64,000 nt of DNA from Escherichia phage vB_EcoP_SU10, in sequence record NC_027395.1. One strand, written 5' to 3'. The translations under genes and the position numbers were made by a program. Positions 21,632 through 61,179 of this stretch are shown in pieces; within the stretch, counting starts at the first letter, position 1; the number at the start of each line of letters is the position of its first letter. Under the pieces are notes generated by a model. That model was not told the origin of the DNA, ran no database searches, and was given only the letters and a program-made list of their open reading frames with translations.

Positions 21632-21655
21632 GAAAAAAGCCACCCGGAGGTGGCT
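21632..21655 (-). terminator. intrinsic terminator
   Basis: AGCCACC-TCCG-GGTGGCT hairpin followed by TTTTTT on - strand, after HNH gene. Confidence 0.55.
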
Positions 21656-21677: not shown

Positions 21678-22091
21678 TTATATGAATTTCTGCATACCTT
21701 TGATACGAGGGTTATCATCACCAACTCTCGATTTACAGTAAGCGATAAAAGATTCAGTATTGAGGTTATCTTTTTGGGAACCCCACTGAAGGTTGTCTGC
21801 TCTATTGTTGCTCGGATTATCATCCAGATGCATAACAACAGCGTTAGGAAAAGGTTTCTCACCGTGAAAAGTCTCACACACTAAGATATGAATCCTTTTC
21901 TTAAACTTTCTTTTCTTGTTTACAAACACCATTCTTCCATCTTTCTCTCTATATCCGCTATATGGTTTTCCTACGAAAAGCCTAACTCCACCATTATTCA
22001 TTATGGCTGTGAAAGGCTTAATCTTAACTCTACCAAAAGATGATACGGAAAGGAAATCATAATAGGGGTGATCTTTCCAGACTTCTTCCAC
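21678..22091 (-). CDS. HNH homing endonuclease
   Basis: HILVCETFHG ... HLDDNPSNNRADNLQWGSQKDN classic HNH_3 motif. Confidence 0.7.
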   Translation of the reverse strand: MEEVWKDHPYYDFLSVSSFGRVKIKPFTAIMNNGGVRLFVGKPYSGYREKDGRMVFVNKKRKFKKRIHILVCETFHGEKPFPNAVVMHLDDNPSNNRADNLQWGSQKDNLNTESFIAYCKSRVGDDNPRIKGMQKFI

Positions 22092-22100
22092 TATTTATCC

Positions 22101-22847
22101 TCAAAATGGGCTATCGTTGTCGTCTTCGTAAGTAGAAGCAGGCTCTTTATCAATCGTAGGGATTGAAGGGGTAGCTTCTTTCTGTTCTGTTTCAGAAGCA
22201 CGAGTAATTTCACGACCAGCCAGAGGCATGTTCTTAGCGTCATTAGCTTGAGTAAGCAGGTTGCGCTGGAACGGGAACATCAGTTGATAGGATGCTACGT
22301 TCTCATCGGTTTCAGCATATGGTTCGAAGAATACCATAGGACTACGAGCTTCACCAACTGCTGCACGATATTTGGTTGGGATTGGAGAAATGGTCTTGAT
22401 GGAGTTTTTAACTTCACCAGCTTTGTTAGTGTAAGAGTTAACCAGAATGTTAACAGGCTGACCTAACAGCACATCCTTGAACCAAGACAGATCACCTTTC
22501 AGTGCTTGAATACTTGGGTCAATCATCTTGCAAAGATCAAGAATACCAGAGTTCTTAGCTCGTGGGTTTACATCATAACTCTTGAACTGGCAAGCCGGAC
22601 GTGGTTCTAATGCCTTACCATCGGAATCTTTACCAGTAGCATCAACACCAATCAGCTCGAAAGCTAAATCCATACGGAAAGTCGGATTCTTAGGAGTTAC
22701 TGCTTTGGTCTTCGGGTCAATCCAAGGGTCACGATTGTGAACACCCAAACCTACTACACGAACGATACGTGCTTCGTACTCACCATCAGGGATTACATCG
22801 TAGTTGGATTTACGGGAAGCAGTTGCGATAGTTGGAATCATAGACAT
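22101..22847 (-). CDS. single-stranded DNA-binding protein candidate (T7 gp2.5-like)
   Basis: 248 aa with acidic C-terminal tail ending ...YEDDNDSPF (acidic tail with terminal Phe as in gp2.5); position beside replication genes. Confidence 0.45.
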   Translation of the reverse strand: MSMIPTIATASRKSNYDVIPDGEYEARIVRVVGLGVHNRDPWIDPKTKAVTPKNPTFRMDLAFELIGVDATGKDSDGKALEPRPACQFKSYDVNPRAKNSGILDLCKMIDPSIQALKGDLSWFKDVLLGQPVNILVNSYTNKAGEVKNSIKTISPIPTKYRAAVGEARSPMVFFEPYAETDENVASYQLMFPFQRNLLTQANDAKNMPLAGREITRASETEQKEATPSIPTIDKEPASTYEDDNDSPF

Positions 22848-22906
22848 ATTTTAATTTCCTTATTTAATTTGAAAGATTGTTGCTCTCTTTGAGCGGTTAT
22901 GTATAG

Positions 22907-22915
22907 TATACATTA
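22907..22915 (-). promoter_or_regulatory. TAATGTATA promoter-like nonamer upstream of SSB gene
   Basis: Exact nonamer on - strand 59 nt upstream of ATG 22847. Confidence 0.45.
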
Positions 22916-22978
22916 CGCTTATACCGATAAGAGTACTATATAATATAAGTATCTTTGGTAGTAGATATAACACACTAG

Positions 22979-22987
22979 TAATGTATA
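22979..22987 (+). promoter_or_regulatory. TAATGTATA nonamer in opposite orientation (divergent, no + gene downstream)
   Basis: Exact nonamer on + strand inside 410-bp AT-rich intergenic region. Confidence 0.3.
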
Positions 22988-23393
22988 TATTGTATAGCTG
23001 ATAAAGTTATTGCAGGCTTGTATATTGGGCAATTCACAGAATCCCTTGCAAGTACCGAAGGGCAGGAGACACCTGCGAGATAAAAATAGAGAATTAAGGA
23101 ATCCTTGATTTAGGTTGTAGGGACTCCTAGGGACTTTGATTCTCTATTTAAAAGAATATTAATTACTTATTACCTAAATAATTAACTAACTTACTTAAAC
23201 CAAATTCAATAAGAATAGATAAAAAGATTATTCCTAAGAAAGCTAAGAAGTAAACAATATAAGTTACCATTCAAGTAAACCTTTAAAGTTAGATTGTTCT
23301 ACTATCCTCTGATAACGAAGATTAGAATCAGCTTGTTTCTTTAACATCTCATTATATTGATCTCTGATAGAGTCTTTATGTACTACAGGTTCT

Positions 23394-23897
23394 TTAAATA
23401 ACGAGATCTTGTTCTTTTCTTCTTTCATCAAAGACCTTCCTAATCTCTTGCAGAGAAACAGCTTTATAGTTAATTTGCTCCATTGATGTACAGAAATATC
23501 TCCAATCATCAATTACATGGTTGTGTGTATGAGCATAAATGTTAAACTTTCCTCTCATCTCATCAGTGTGAATAGGGATATGAGTTACCCAAAACTCTTT
23601 ATATTTATAATCACCAGAGATTCTACGGAAGACTTTCATCATATCAGGGAGAAGTTCTAACCTGTCATGGTTCCCTAAGACTAGATGCTTCTCTCCTTTT
23701 ACTTCAGCGATGATATCAAGGGCATACTTTTCAAACACCCAATCACCGGTAAAGAAGATTTTGTCTCGCTTAGTTACATGATCAAATGCAGCTAGAATTG
23801 CTTTGTCATGTTCTTCGATGGTTTTAAATTGCTTACGAAAACTACAGATGTTGCGATGACCTAAGTGACCATCTCCTGCAAAATAAACTTCAGCCAT
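23394..23897 (-). CDS. metallophosphoesterase (calcineurin-like phosphatase)
   Basis: GDGHLGH, FFTGDWV, LGNHD, HTH metal-binding motifs. Confidence 0.7.
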   Translation of the reverse strand: MAEVYFAGDGHLGHRNICSFRKQFKTIEEHDKAILAAFDHVTKRDKIFFTGDWVFEKYALDIIAEVKGEKHLVLGNHDRLELLPDMMKVFRRISGDYKYKEFWVTHIPIHTDEMRGKFNIYAHTHNHVIDDWRYFCTSMEQINYKAVSLQEIRKVFDERRKEQDLVI

Positions 23898-23906
23898 AAA
23901 GACCTC

Positions 23907-24122
23907 TTAGATAGTACACCCATCACAAGTTAAGTCACCTAGCAGGGACAGGGAAAGTAATCTGGATTGCTCATCGCTGTATAGTTGATCAATCTCTTCT
24001 TTAAGTTTTGCCAACTCCATAAAGTTAATGAGCTGACCATGTTCGAGGCAGTCTGTTTTTAGTACGAACAAAACTTCAGCGTCTGTTGAATCTTCACTTG
24101 AATATTTATCAATGTATTCCAT
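23907..24122 (-). CDS. hypothetical protein
   Basis: 71-aa ORF tightly packed with neighbours. Confidence 0.35.
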   Translation of the reverse strand: MEYIDKYSSEDSTDAEVLFVLKTDCLEHGQLINFMELAKLKEEIDQLYSDEQSRLLSLSLLGDLTCDGCTI

Positions 24123-24614
24123 TTTTACTCCTATTAATTATGACCAAGATTTAACTTTTACTTCGACGTATGTTTTAACTTCACCTTTCAAGACTTCCTG
24201 AGAAGCATTTGCACTTTCCTCAGAGTGGTGTACAACGGTGATCTCTTTCTTTCCAATCTTATAAGTGTGAATCCAAATCATACTTCTTCCTCATATTCCC
24301 AATTTCTTTCATAATATCCAGAGTTATAGTTTAGGGCGCACTTCTCGGCCTCTTCTATGTCGTCAGTGTTTAGGATATTTACCCATCCTCCAACTTCATC
24401 AAAACCTTCTTCTACTTCGTTAAACCATACACTATACTTTTTCATCGAGAGGTTCTTCCCCAATCTTTTACATAGCATCGACCGTTAACCCACTTCGTCT
24501 CTGATTTAAACTCTTGAGACAATCTCATTTCACAGTCTTCTCTACTGGCATCTCCTCCGATATCAATCAGATATAGGAATAGAGCTATACCTAAAGCCCA
24601 AAGAATTATCTTCT

Positions 24615-29718: not shown

Positions 29719-30456
29719 TTAAGCTTTCTTTTCCATTGCTTTAACAATCGCCTTACAGAAACCAGAACGAACAATGTCATCCGATTCTCCGTCTACAATC
29801 TCAGCGAACTCATACAGATCATGTTCATCAATAAAGTTAGTAGCCCAAGTAAGACCACTCTCACGACCACGCATATCATGCTGGTTTGTATCACCCATAC
29901 AGAACAATTGAGAGGTTTCTCCCAATCGAGTCATGATGGAGAAGGCTTCATCCTTAGTTGTGTTCTGGAACTCATCTACGATAACAATGGCATCATTGAA
30001 AGAGCGACCACGGAGATATTCCAGAGGTACAAATTCAATGTTACCATTTCCGATTTGGCATTCATAGAATCCCTTACCATATCGCTGAGTAATAACATCA
30101 ATGATAGGCATCAGGTAAGGTTCAAACTTCTCACGCATTCCTCCCGGAAGTAACCCAAGAGAGTTTCCCATGCCAACCGAAGGGCGACTCAGAATGATCT
30201 TCTGAATCTTACCACTTTTCAGTGCATCGATAACCGTGGAAGTGATTACAAAGGTCTTACCACAGCCCGCAGGAGCGTCTGTGAACACAACTTGTTTAGT
30301 CTTAATAGCATTGAGTAGCTCAGACTGAAACTGGTTCTGAGGGACTACAGGCTTTGCTAAAACCACCTCTTCATACTCTCGCTTACCCTTACGAGTAACA
30401 AGTGCTTCCCGACGAAGGTCTTTCCGTGATTCTTTCCGTGATTGACGACGACTCAT
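29719..30456 (-). CDS. phoH: PhoH-like ATPase
   Basis: Walker A DAPAGCGKTF and typical PhoH-like core (ILSRPSV ... IVIVDEFQN). Confidence 0.8.
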   Translation of the reverse strand: MSRRQSRKESRKDLRREALVTRKGKREYEEVVLAKPVVPQNQFQSELLNAIKTKQVVFTDAPAGCGKTFVITSTVIDALKSGKIQKIILSRPSVGMGNSLGLLPGGMREKFEPYLMPIIDVITQRYGKGFYECQIGNGNIEFVPLEYLRGRSFNDAIVIVDEFQNTTKDEAFSIMTRLGETSQLFCMGDTNQHDMRGRESGLTWATNFIDEHDLYEFAEIVDGESDDIVRSGFCKAIVKAMEKKA

Positions 30457-51532: not shown

Positions 51533-52027
51533 ACATCCTCCAGTTAATTGTTAAAATTATCAGGGGAGTACACTAGCTCTGGGCCACGCTGTAGATATCG
51601 GCCTACCTTCCACAGCTAATCAGCTAATGTACTCTCCTAATAGTTTATGAATAGGGGGAGGGGACGAATCCTCCCTTATCCTATTAATTAATATTGCATG
51701 TAAGATCTAACAATCGGTTGCCTTTGTAGGAATAGGTGTAAAGCCAATCCAGCACTAAACTCCCGCCCCCTTAGTGGGCTGGGTTATTAAAGGGTAACGC
51801 CCTTATGGGCTAGTTACATGAATGTTAGTTTGATAGGAGATCTGAAGTCCTATCTCAAAGGACTCTCGTAAGAATCCTTCACGATATTACTTATTCATTT
51901 TTCGTCGGCTATCTCTCCAAGCCAACCAAGTGTAGGTTTTCAACTCTTCTAAACTTTCTGGAGTGAATAGGTATTCTTTGAAGGTGTCACTAAACCACTC
52001 TAAAAATTCTTCAGTCATAATAACATC

Positions 52028-53328: not shown

Positions 53329-53404
53329 TGGTGCGCCCTACAGGACTCGAACCTGTAACCAATAGCTTAGAAGGCTACTGCTCTATCCATTGAGCTAAGA
53401 GCGC
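53329..53404 (-). tRNA. tRNA-Arg (anticodon UCU)
   Basis: Hand-folded cloverleaf: acceptor GCGCTCT/AGGGCGC, D-arm GCTC-AATGGATA-GAGC, anticodon loop CTTCTAA, T-arm ACAGG-TTCGAGT-CCTGT, encoded CCA. Confidence 0.8.
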
Positions 53405-54559: not shown

Positions 54560-55005
54560 GAATCCAGAAGCCTTCCAGTTTCAGAGCACCATTAGCTACT
54601 GCATCCATACGTTCAGGGCGGTTCATACGTTTGGTTGATACTTTCATACCTATCTCTCTTTGTTAGTGGAGGCATTATTGCCAGTTGATATAAGGGATAG
54701 CCCTAGTCAGTAGGCTAATCCTGACCGCGTACTCATTGCCGACCTTCTCTGCCTAAGAGTTCAGGTTCTAGAGCTATCTCTTATTCCAACTGGTGAAGAC
54801 TCCCTACCCCTAGGAAGTCTCCTGAATCCCAAACCAATATGTACCCCTACATATTAGAAAGTCTTTCGAAAATTAACAGGTTTTAGTCTAGCACCGGATG
54901 TTCGAGCAAGCTCTCCCTAGCGGTGTGGCATATGCCTGAATTAATAAGTTAATGAGGAACACCCTCACATAGCCCTCTGATAAACACAAGGGCTATAAGT
55001 CGGTG

Positions 55006-55936: not shown

Positions 55937-56233
55937 TCAATTATCACTGTTAATCTCCTGCTGCTTAGCAATAGCCACTCGCAAGTCTTCATTAGCACGA
56001 GCAAGGCGCAACACTTCATGATTGAGGTTCTGAAGACGTTTGTTTCTGTCTTCAACTTGCATAATAAGATCGTTGAGTGTTACTTTAACTTTCTCATTAT
56101 ACATCTCATCCACTCGGACTAGAGATTTATACATTCTTTCCCAGCTTGCTGCTTTGTTTCTTAGGACAATAAATCCTAGAACGCTGATAGTTAAACAGCT
56201 TACAAAAAGGAATTTATATATTTCTAAAGTCAT
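55937..56233 (-). CDS. membrane-anchored coiled-coil protein
   Basis: N-terminal TM FLFVSCLTISVLGFIVL then heptad-like helix. Confidence 0.4.
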   Translation of the reverse strand: MTLEIYKFLFVSCLTISVLGFIVLRNKAASWERMYKSLVRVDEMYNEKVKVTLNDLIMQVEDRNKRLQNLNHEVLRLARANEDLRVAIAKQQEINSDN

Positions 56234-56432
56234 ATTATTTACCCTTTATCAGAGATTAAAAGTAATATTATTTAAGTAAGTTATGTTTAGTAAACTTATT
56301 TTCTAAGAAATTTTCAAAGGGTCTATATACAGAGCATTACCCATAGTTCCAGAATACTACCATCTTTTTCAATAAATTTACTAAGTGATTGGTTTATAAA
56401 GGAATTTAGTTTGTCAAATCTGGCACTAGTGA

Positions 56433-56822
56433 TTATTCCCTAGAGCTATTATCGAACACTAAATCACCACAATACATAGGATTGGCATACCATTTTGGCA
56501 CCCCTTCGCTCTTACTCTGAAAGTAAGTCCCACTGTACAGCGGAACATAATTCTTCTTAAGGGCACGTTTAGCCAGCCGCTCGCTTTCTCCAATAGCTTG
56601 CTTAGTCATCGGATTTTTATCACGAATCAGCTTTACATAACGTTTATAAGGTTTCTCCTGTTTTAATAGTACCGGAATCCACTCAAACTGGTTCTTTTGT
56701 CTTATCACCTGTTCAGCGGTCAGTTTTCGTTGGGCCATTCTATTTATCACGGTATCCGCAACTAAAGCCTTACATGCGGTTGGCTGATTCCCTGCCTCAT
56801 AATAAATAGTCAATGTCAACAT
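56433..56822 (-). CDS. cell-wall hydrolase-like protein (SleB-type domain)
   Basis: IYYEAGNQPTACKALVADTVINRMA resembles the YAEARGE ... VA-VV-NR motif of SleB-type hydrolases. Confidence 0.45.
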   Translation of the reverse strand: MLTLTIYYEAGNQPTACKALVADTVINRMAQRKLTAEQVIRQKNQFEWIPVLLKQEKPYKRYVKLIRDKNPMTKQAIGESERLAKRALKKNYVPLYSGTYFQSKSEGVPKWYANPMYCGDLVFDNSSRE

Positions 56823-59242: not shown

Positions 59243-60155
59243 CTTTCAATTGTAAGGGCGCTATTGCCCCGCTCTCTATGAGCTTGTTTAAGTCACTATT
59301 AACTTATCTCTAACCACTCACTTTTTAAGTAGTTACAGGTAAGCGAGGCGGTCTTATCAGGAGTTAACCTTGCCGCCTCCTTATCCGTGATGTTTCATCT
59401 GGTATCTTTAATTAGTCGCTATAAACGAAGCCGACCTGATAGCGATGATCAATCATCACAATAAGGCAGTGCGTCCGACTCTAATTAGTTACGTTTATTG
59501 TAACCGTCGGCAATATCGTCTACTTTGCTTTCGCTCTCGCCTATCCTTTTGTATCAACTCTCAATCACTAGCCATCGCCCACAACGGGATGCTATTGTGA
59601 AAGAGTCATTGACCGTCTAATGTTCTGACGTTTTATATCTTTCGGCAAGTTTACTACATAAACCGACTATGTACTTTCATCTTGTGATGAATCTCAAGCC
59701 GTTCACATCGTAAACGTTCACACTAAACCTTATTGTTAAATAGCAATTTGCCACTTTTTAACCACTCCCCGCCGCTCTCAATTGAGCGTTAATTCTTCGG
59801 GCTTGCCTACCCTGATTAACTTCTTTCACTGTAGCGCCTTGTTAGCGATGACCGCCGCTACCCTTAACCGTGGGCGATTAGCTTAAGTCTTTGCGTACAC
59901 TCAATGAATCCGTTTATCAGTGGTGACGTTTCCAGCAAGGGATTGTAAGATTGTTTTCTCTGATAGTTTAGAGAATCTTACACCGTTTTATCTGGTATGT
60001 TATCTGATGGTTATTATCATCTAACATATTCAACCGATATAGGAGAATGTTTAAATTATTAAAGAGCGGTAAATCTGTCAGTGTGCTTTCTCACACTACG
60101 CAACTGTTAGCCGTTGTTACGCTTTCCTTAAGCGGTGATTTGCTTAAGTGTGCTC

Positions 60156-60184
60156 ATTATGAATCATGTTGTTTTCGCTGTCAA
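60156..60184 (-). promoter_or_regulatory. sigma70-type early promoter
   Basis: - strand TTGACA, 17-nt spacer, CATAAT, with upstream A tract. Confidence 0.55.
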
Positions 60185-60313
60185 CCACTTTTTAATCTTT
60201 TTTCGTCGTTCCCGCTATTGGGAGGATATATCAATCAGCTTTATTTGATTGAAGACTAAGCGGTGATGCTTATCTTATGATTCATATTGTTAAAGAGCGG
60301 TTACTACATTTAC

Positions 60314-60341
60314 AGCTTAACACATCGTGTTAGCTTGTCAA
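60314..60341 (-). promoter_or_regulatory. sigma70-type promoter candidate (weak -10)
   Basis: - strand TTGACA, 16 nt, TAAGCT. Confidence 0.3.
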
Positions 60342-60639
60342 CTCTTTTTATCATCTTCTTTTAATTCCTTTCCCTTATCTCGCGTGAATCTATGCGAAAG
60401 GGCAAGATGATAAGTCTGATTTGTCTTTTAGGAATCTAGTGCGCTTTCAAGCATTGACCATTTGAAAGTATCGAACAAATGAGGCTTATTTTGTTGCTCA
60501 TCGTCCGCCTGTTCACGTATGAATCAGGAATCAATTCTAGTGGTCAACTAAGCGCCTTATAGTAATGACGTTCCCGCCACCTGTAAGACAAATCATATTT
60601 TTAAAGAGCTGGATGTTTCACGTCATCGCTGACTATGCT

Positions 60640-60668
60640 CACTATATATCAGGCTGTTTTCGGTGTCA
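60640..60668 (-). promoter_or_regulatory. sigma70-type early promoter
   Basis: - strand TTGACA, 17-nt spacer, TATAGT, upstream AAAAAGAG. Confidence 0.6.
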
Positions 60669-61074
60669 ATACTCTTTTTAAGAATATTTTCACTTTCTAG
60701 CCTGATTTTTAAAGAGCGTAGCACTTTCATTGTGCGTCTTACCGTCGGTATTCCTACCGCTCCCCGTTGAAGCCTTTTACCGTGATGCTAATCACCTATC
60801 GAGGAGTTTTTACTACTTGTTGTTACTTACTGCTTACTACGGGATTCATATTACTATACAGGAAAACCCTGTCAATACCCTTTTTTCAAATTATTTTATA
60901 TCTCACTGTTTTATAAAGGAATTTATTTTAGAGATGACAGGAACTACAAAGAAATCAGAAGAGAGAGGAACGGGAGCGCGTGATACATCATAGGAAACAG
61001 CCTGTAAAGCAATAATAAGCGGCCTATAACGCATCACAACGAGCTAAAAGGGAGTAAGGTATACAATCACCTTA

Positions 61075-61102
61075 GAAAAGAAAAAAGCCTCATAGTGAGG
61101 CT
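61075..61102 (-). terminator. intrinsic terminator
   Basis: AGCCTCA-CTA-TGAGGCT then TTTTTTCTTTT on - strand. Confidence 0.55.
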
Positions 61103-61179
61103 TATAGGAAGGATTTAAAGCATTAGATACATTATGACCATAGGCATGACTACGGCACAATACAGGAGAAAGATTAAGC

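Follow-up and report, generated by a model that had tools for sequence, protein, structure and literature searches.

Upstream of its gene 40 homologue, Escherichia phage vB_EcoP_SU10 has a gap that carries the same promoter-like nonamer on both strands, and the question that this raises is what the rightward copy, which has no gene in front of it, might be there to transcribe. We have analysed this locus within a stretch of 64,000 nucleotides from sequence record NC_027395.1 (the window; coordinates are counted from its first letter). Window bases 22000–24500 match 97 phage records in all, among them, at 96–98% identity, about 50 complete genomes from phiEco32-like coliphages (Kuravirus, Gordonclarkvirinae), and the gap is homologous to that between phi32_40 and phi32_41 in phiEco32, the model for redirection of host RNA polymerase by phage proteins, here the sigma factor gp36 and its co-factor gp79. 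A preliminary description had singled out 22850–23263 as an intergenic region and candidate origin of replication or source of an antisense RNA. Our analysis suggests that the rightward nonamer belongs to a credible and apparently unreported seventh gp36 promoter, here termed Pas, a close copy of the P68 promoter that points against all surrounding genes, and that the probable product of Pas is a non-coding RNA of about 157 nt, structured and conserved, convergent with the upstream genes and initiated back-to-back with the known promoter P40.

The proposed rightward promoter opposite P40

The sequence tAATGTAtA is the consensus of six mapped phiEco32 promoters for host RNA polymerase carrying gp36, which precede genes 6, 13, 26, 40, 58 and 68 and from which transcription starts 6–8 bp downstream of the consensus (PMC8948821, PMC4281155, PMC4331800). 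All six gp36 promoters on the phiEco32 transcription map so far serve genes. The divergent promoter-like nonamers of the preliminary description are indeed copies of this published consensus: TAATGTATA lies at 22907–22915 on the − strand and at 22979–22987 on the + strand, with 63 nt between the two. The window holds four exact copies, against 0.70 expected from shuffled sequences, a number reached in 1 of 100 shuffles. A T7-type promoter was ruled out, the nonamer being the consensus for the E. coli enzyme equipped with the phiEco32 sigma factor. As it matches the published consensus for the promoter upstream of gene 40 exactly, and in the same place as in phiEco32, the − strand nonamer is the −10-like element of P40, the known gp36-dependent middle promoter included in the six mapped ones (PMC4331800; PMC8948821 supplement). 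Exact nonamers are also present at P26 (12300, + strand) and P58 (29699, − strand), and P68 (33868, − strand) reads AAATGTATA.

The + strand nonamer is part of a more extensive match. The −10-like element of Pas, TAATGTATATA (22979–22989, + strand), agrees exactly with the extended consensus tAATGTATAtA, and it is preceded by a −35 block, GGTAGTAGATA (22957–22967, + strand). This 11-mer occurs only twice in the window, at Pas and at P68 (33888–33898, − strand), and the distance from its GG to AATG is 23 nt at both. The structure of the open complex on P68, obtained by cryo-electron microscopy, shows the N-terminal domain of gp36 reading −14A, −13A, −12T and −11G and its C-terminal domain contacting −37G and −34A, and transcription is lost when the P68 bases contacted by gp36 are mutated (PMC12276001). 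Under the P68 numbering Pas supplies both of the bases contacted by the C-terminal domain, as G22957 (−37) and A22960 (−34).

The evolutionary behaviour of these elements was followed in 19 relatives picked for diversity from Kuravirus, Suseptimavirus and Nieuwekanaalvirus, among which intergenic identity falls to 75%. In all 19, GGTAGTA and AATGTATATA are invariant and 16 nt apart, and the spacer between them varies in sequence and is fixed in length; invariant elements, fixed spacing and a drifting spacer together make up the classical footprint of a working promoter. A composite Pas/P68 pattern was found exactly twice per genome in five Kuravirus genomes from IMG/VR, and apart from the Kuravirus matches (Pas and P68) the IMG/VR scan yielded only chance matches within genes of unrelated contigs. 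Phages of the ES17 type have an insertion of about 150 bp that parts P40 from Pas, with both promoters and the RNA intact. These patterns bear directly on the possibility that Pas is inert, in which case the region would consist of the terminator of the upstream operon and P40 upstream sequence, the consensus match would have arisen incidentally, for example as what remains of a duplication of P68, and the conservation would be due to recombination between mosaic genomes. A relic would not have held the two elements at an exact distance from each other in 19 relatives with a drifting spacer between them, and the preservation of Pas and its RNA in ES17-type phages, despite the insertion next to P40, likewise speaks against it.

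What sets Pas apart is that, of the consensus gp36 promoters in the window, it alone has no gene to serve. The earlier remark that the + copy faces − strand genes with no + strand open reading frame (ORF) is borne out, since no conserved + strand ORF follows it and all neighbours lie on the − strand. A middle or late gene downstream, which would be expected of a gp36 promoter, is absent at Pas.

The predicted RNA and its conserved strand

With the start placed by the P68 numbering, the Pas transcript is predicted to begin at A22994, and this is the first base of a 5'-terminal stem-loop of 6 bp (hairpin 1, AUAGCU-GAUAA-AGUUAU; 22994–23010, + strand). Hairpin 1 is fully paired in 14 distinct sequences, all 70 cells being standard pairs, and its five haplotypes (AUAGCU/AGCUAU, AUAGCU/AGUUAU, AUAGAU/UUCUAU, AGAGUU/AACUCU and AUAGUU/AACUAU) all pair. 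Compensatory double changes are found in two pairs, and one pair alternates between G-C and G-U. The covariation score of 0.459 was reached by none of 500 shuffles, which ignore relatedness, and controls slid along the alignment scored 0–0.04.

Downstream of hairpin 1 lies a variable middle module (version A; 23011–23053, + strand), which in MN05, ECBP2, ES17 and EcM-vB1 is replaced by an unrelated and longer version B confined to 12 Escherichia phage records. It leads into a nearly invariant 3' domain of 97 nt (23054–23150, + strand), composed of a small hairpin (GCAGG-AGACA-CCUGC; 23062–23076, + strand), an A-rich linker and a long hairpin of 66 nt (23084–23149, + strand) that encloses both copies of the direct repeat already noticed in the preliminary description, TAGGGACT at 23118–23125 and 23128–23135, 10 nt from start to start. 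A search for the 3' domain gave one copy per genome in 97 records of related phages of Escherichia and Shigella, and no annotated feature lies under it among the matches listed. Across the 19 relatives its mean pairwise identity is 0.979; for comparison, codon positions 1, 2 and 3 of the first 480 nt of gene 40 have identities of 0.929, 0.963 and 0.753. The sites that vary in these relatives are in the loop of the small hairpin (A/C), a bulge (an extra A) and the apical region (A/G), and a further variant changes an A-U pair of the long stem to G-U. One deletion variant is short of one G of the second repeat and of precisely those two bases that bulge from an alternative helix, UCCUUGAU/GUUG(U)A(G)GGA; six relatives have both TAGGGACT copies short of one G and a spacing of 9. 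An exception is a metagenome singleton (L034) in which the closing U of the UAGG stem is altered.

Two other explanations of the transcribed segment were tried and rejected. A small + strand protein could be sought in a 32-codon ORF with a TTG start (23010–23108), which is frame-shifted by indels and replaced outright in the relatives with module B; indels break every + strand reading frame in the relatives. The GGA and CUCCU motifs could be read as a CsrA sponge or as anti-Shine–Dalgarno sequences, and the context of these motifs is lost in the deletion variants.

The predicted fold of the 176-nt segment has an energy of −47 kcal/mol on the + strand versus −35 kcal/mol on the − strand (z-scores −2.9 and −2.1), and that of the long hairpin −23.5 versus −18.2 kcal/mol. 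G-U pairs are found in 5 of the 14 hairpin 1 sequences and in the one long-stem variant, where pairing is kept on the + strand only; as each of these would be an A-C mismatch on the − strand, the + strand is the one that is kept paired. On the − strand the long hairpin (23079–23149, with an 11-bp outer stem and an inner stem) is followed by UUUUUAU in the manner of a terminator, and to judge from this arrangement it probably ends the upstream middle operon, which comprises gene 41, gene 42 and the phosphoesterase gene. A consensus terminator scan flagged the long hairpin on neither strand, in the case of the − strand because of its long loop and few G-C pairs. Hairpin 1 and bases 23054–23083 lie beyond this probable − strand terminator, so that a − strand RNA does not explain their conservation. 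The idea of an inert Pas draws on the same features: the − strand hairpin with its U5 run is a plausible terminator, the region is visibly mosaic, with hairpin 1 types, modules A and B and the presence of gene 41 reshuffled among phages, and the structure of most of the proposed RNA, being invariant, is not open to testing. A terminator, however, needs no 97 nt conserved above the level of second codon positions, loops and 30 nt past the U-tract included, and hairpin 1 covaries although it lies outside the terminator. Because of this covariation and the promoter-type pattern of conservation, we regard a silent relic as unlikely.

The explanation that we consider likely is therefore stated here in full as a model for Pas and its RNA. 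The gap would hold two back-to-back promoters, both read by E. coli RNA polymerase with gp36, of which the leftward, the known P40, drives the probable single-stranded-DNA-binding protein (SSB) gene and Pas would be active from the middle phase of infection. The Pas RNA would start at A22994 with its 5'-terminal stem-loop, continue via the exchangeable middle module into the nearly invariant 97-nt domain and mostly stop near 23150 at the long hairpin, for a length of about 157 nt in this phage and of about 185 nt in those with version B; read from the opposite strand, that hairpin would serve as the terminator of the upstream middle operon. The product would act as an RNA in the manner of lambda OOP, overlapping the 66-nt terminator hairpin of the upstream operon mRNA and, by extension, any read-through transcript, and its conserved single-stranded loops rich in GGA and GGG may additionally bind protein or another RNA. 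This OOP-like antisense or regulatory role is our best guess and is slightly favoured because a 5' stem-loop, a conserved body and a 3' hairpin are the architecture of a stable small RNA that is released. The idea of an antisense or non-coding RNA in the preliminary description thus gains support from a P68-like −35 block, a covarying hairpin at the predicted start and a conserved downstream domain.

Several points weigh against this model. We found no published RNA sequencing or 5' mapping of the + strand here. Pas is missing from the published lists of gp36 promoters, which give six, and an earlier mention in the primary phiEco32 papers is possible; one promoter study confined its search to the strand of the gene downstream (PMC4331800) and would for that reason have overlooked Pas. 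Hairpin 1 is the only part that covaries, the remainder being too invariant for its structure to be tested, and the predicted fold of the middle module differs between variants. Recombination between mosaics could help to keep the 3' domain near-identical, and the conservation of this domain could also reflect a site acting at the level of DNA. On the + strand only a weak U-tract, UAUUUAAAA, comes after the long hairpin, which leaves the 3' end uncertain; some transcripts may run on into antisense of genes 41 and 42 and of the phosphoesterase gene. Finally, a blastn-short search of the window for a second copy or a target gave chance-level matches only, the best match to the RNA being 16 nt at 30060, inside a PhoH-like gene.

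The element appears to be restricted to a narrow group of phages. No Rfam 15 covariance model overlapped it at E values up to 10 on both strands of the window and of four variant loci, where the only matches were to weak microRNA or small nucleolar RNA models far below gathering scores; the RNA had no similarity to any of 5,426 E. coli genomes, and an exact search for the conserved core in 185,579 species (one genome each) gave no match. In phage 7-11, GAP52 and phages of Proteus, Aeromonas and Vibrio, the gap upstream of the gene 40 homologue is 0–243 bp long; for such sister groups with a gene 40 homologue the DNA searches returned the phiEco32 subgroup only, the gap sequences themselves not having been read. 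The element is absent from soil-metagenome contigs with 66–69% gp40 identity, which have an unrelated conserved block in its place. As it is seen in the phiEco32 subgroup with no sign of it in sister groups, it would be an invention of this subgroup, tied to the gp36 type of promoter.

The soil block is of some interest in its own right. It consists of 60 nt, TGGAAGCATCTAGCAAAGCTAGCATATCAAAGCTAAGCTAAGCTATATGCTTTATCCATT, with repeated AAGCT units, and is identical in three phage contigs of 82–90 kb (L038, L039 and L041; each at 1860–2000, − strand) in which its flanks differ. A nearby hairpin in a 5' untranslated region (UTR) of the soil contigs shows a compensatory change, GUCCA/UGGAC versus GUUCA/UGAAC. 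The block may be an analogous, non-homologous control element.

Gene 41, the AT-rich tract and the neighbouring genes

The region to the right of the long hairpin contains a short gene that could be the partner of an antisense RNA. The interval named in the preliminary description is non-coding for 315 bp (22848–23162), and its last 108 bp are occupied by a 35-aa hydrophobic ORF, the gene 41 homologue (phi32_41, phrog_24970; 23163–23270, − strand). One might accordingly picture a type I toxin–antitoxin-like pair, in which the gene 41 product is the toxic peptide and the Pas RNA its antisense regulator, acting through the shared terminator. The peptide, with a single hydrophobic helix, would suit such a role, and the two transcripts would converge and overlap across the 66-nt terminator hairpin. 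Gene 41 is, however, found in only 12 of the 19 relatives compared and cleanly missing from the other seven, which keep Pas and the RNA domain unchanged; it overlaps the stop codon of gene 42 and is without a promoter of its own, making it part of the polycistronic middle operon; and the conservation reaches well beyond the overlap. As 7 of 19 phages lack gene 41 yet retain the RNA, we judge a toxin–antitoxin pair to be highly improbable. We also observed that the phosphoesterase gene is annotated as longer in the seven relatives without gene 41 (639 versus 504 nt).

The origin of replication suggested in the preliminary description deserves closer attention, as does the AT-richness on which it leaned. 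Bases 22850–23263 do have a GC content of 0.297, against 0.419 for the window, but it is the promoter region (0.26) and the DNA past the long hairpin (0.20) that are AT-rich, while the 157-nt segment that lies between Pas and the AT-rich tract, which the + strand promoter would transcribe, has a GC content of 0.40. The tract 3' of the long hairpin (23151–23270, not assigned to a strand) includes gene 41 and is thus partly coding, and the 300-nt stretch with the highest AT content in the entire window begins at 23151. The gap also proved to be, as had been said, the largest in the replication block, being the longest stretch between 17.5 and 49 kb without a − strand ORF of at least 50 aa.

On this basis Pas might serve a transcription-activated origin, at which host RNA polymerase reprogrammed by the phage sigma factor would make a transcript or R-loop that primes the leading strand or opens the AT-rich DNA for the primase-helicase. 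The 97-nt domain would then set the 3' end of the primer or bind replication proteins; together with the G-rich repeats it would fix the RNA end where the AT-rich unwinding region begins. By analogy this would be a hybrid of the solutions of T7 (a promoter and AT-rich DNA) and of ColE1 and mitochondria (a structured primer RNA). Pas being alone among the consensus gp36 promoters of the window in having no gene to serve is compatible with such a role, as is its place in the replication block beside the probable SSB gene, with the most AT-rich 300 nt starting directly after the hairpin. All 19 relatives, moreover, keep a low-GC tract of 120–200 nt (17–31% GC) after the hairpin, irrespective of gene 41; the phage has a T7-like set of replisome genes by annotation (primase-helicase, family A polymerase, exonuclease); and the P68-like build implies that Pas would fire while the replication genes are expressed. 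The T7 origin, on the other hand, requires no structured and sequence-invariant RNA, and the discrete hairpin end suggests a released small RNA. GC skew tracks the direction of transcription and has no informative switch here. Iteron arrays typically comprise three or more initiator-binding direct repeats of 17–22 bp each, whereas the locus has two 8-mers 10 nt apart within a hairpin. There is no sign of the element in the sister groups (7-11, GAP52, the Proteus, Aeromonas and Vibrio phages and the soil contigs), which have the same replication genes, and no origin has been reported in the literature for these phages. We therefore think it rather doubtful that the Pas RNA is an origin primer, and return to the antisense or regulatory RNA as the slightly preferred explanation.

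On the other side of the promoters, the gene 40 homologue (22101–22847, − strand) is the first gene of the P40 operon and encodes a protein of 248 aa, 99% identical to phi32_40, which is probably a single-stranded-DNA-binding protein. It is labelled so in two records only, Ptacy1532 and SeKF_80, and sequence searches with gp40 found no match in Pfam, named PHROG or PDB entries. The C-terminus is acidic and ends in an aromatic residue (...YEDDNDSPF), a tail that we take to be SSB-like, resembling those of T7 gp2.5 and E. coli SSB, and it supports the label. The predicted 5' UTR of gene 40 (22848–22900, − strand; its start at 22900 follows from the P68 numbering, with AATG at −14 to −11) contains a small hairpin, GCUC/GAGC (22882–22894), and a ribosome-binding site, and the block is kept in the 19 relatives.

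Some further observations concern the promoters themselves. An imperfect 21-bp palindrome, GTTATGTATAGTATACATTAC, surrounds P40 (22896–22916) in Kuravirus genomes and is not kept in the SU7 and EK010 group; it gives rise to a near-consensus + strand motif, TTATGTATA (22897). This motif and another, TATTGTATA (22988), are probably not promoters because neither is conserved in the SU7 group. The P68 transcript, like that of Pas, would start with a small stem at +1 (ACAA...UUGU; 33860–33900, − strand), and the P40 leader has its GCUC/GAGC hairpin near the 5' end, so hairpins in this position may be a general feature of gp36 transcripts. The insertion in ES17 (L017:500–960) and EcM-vB1 (L019:500–962) contains a 47-aa ORF, read from the − strand, for which no separate promoter is obvious, and the ES17-type phages that have it also carry middle module B.

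Elsewhere in the window, the consensus terminator scan of 21.5–25.5 kb flagged two sites, of which the sole − strand one is a canonical terminator-like hairpin, AGCCACC-TCCG-GGTGGCT followed by TTTTTT (21638–21655), inside the middle operon downstream of gene 40. In the early region, 59243–61179 (1.9 kb) is without a − strand ORF of at least 50 aa, as are shorter stretches of 200–500 bp at 51533–52027, 54560–55005 and around 56050–56450, and a second very AT-rich spot (GC 0.27) lies at about 56150. A scan of the window for tRNA and tmRNA genes found tRNA-Arg(TCT) at 53329–53404 only.

Significance and comparison with known systems

P40 and the nonamer motif are already known biology; what is credible and apparently unreported is Pas together with its conserved non-coding RNA. 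If the model is true, a seventh promoter, perfect in its consensus and universally conserved, would add a non-coding RNA output to the gp36 programme, and this RNA would be the first candidate regulatory or priming RNA of the family; should it prime replication, it would also show where replication starts in this phage family. The prediction gives promoter, start site and expected product size to the base, and transcription systems with purified gp36 and gp79 exist. Members of the family are being isolated against pathogenic and multidrug-resistant E. coli.

The closest counterpart of Pas is the middle promoter P68. The two carry an identical −35 block, GGTAGTAGATA, equally far from xAATGTATA, and share the predicted −1/+1 context (T then A), and both are conserved across the subgroup. 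They differ in that P68, with AAATGTATA, drives gene 68, whereas Pas, with its perfect TAATGTATATA, is predicted to run against the gene cluster with no ORF to follow.

The primary origin of T7 consists of promoters phi1.1A and phi1.1B and an AT-rich region, and the present locus resembles it in having a predicted phage-specific promoter, then very AT-rich DNA, in a phage with a T7-like replisome gene set. A single-subunit phage RNA polymerase, however, transcribes from the T7 promoters, which point in the same direction as the genes and also serve downstream genes, and in T7 the AT-rich region comes directly after the promoters, whereas here a structured, conserved segment of 157 nt intervenes. 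Structured non-coding RNAs whose folding matters for function are also known from plasmids, namely RNA II of ColE1, which is about 550 nt long and processed by RNase H, and RNA II of par, the Fst system of pAD1, in which RNA I and RNA II share a bidirectional terminator; txpA/RatA likewise has an antisense regulator acting via a shared terminator. The Pas RNA has no sequence or Rfam similarity to ColE1 RNA II or par RNA II. A bidirectional terminator shared by two RNAs is what we propose for the Pas RNA, but par depends on its toxin, whereas the present element can do without gene 41.

The comparison that we find most instructive is with the OOP RNA of lambda, reportedly described by Krinke and Wulff in 1987 and 1990. 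OOP is a 77-nt RNA made from promoter pO by the host sigma-70 holoenzyme and was at first proposed to be a replication primer. The predicted Pas RNA shares with it the nature of a short non-coding transcript from the replication region that opposes an operon, has a hairpin end and overlaps the 3' end of a convergent mRNA. OOP is the shorter of the two and overlaps the 3' end of the cII coding sequence, whereas the Pas RNA would overlap only the 3' UTR and terminator of its counterpart, and about 90 nt of the Pas RNA are invariant although they take no part in the overlap.

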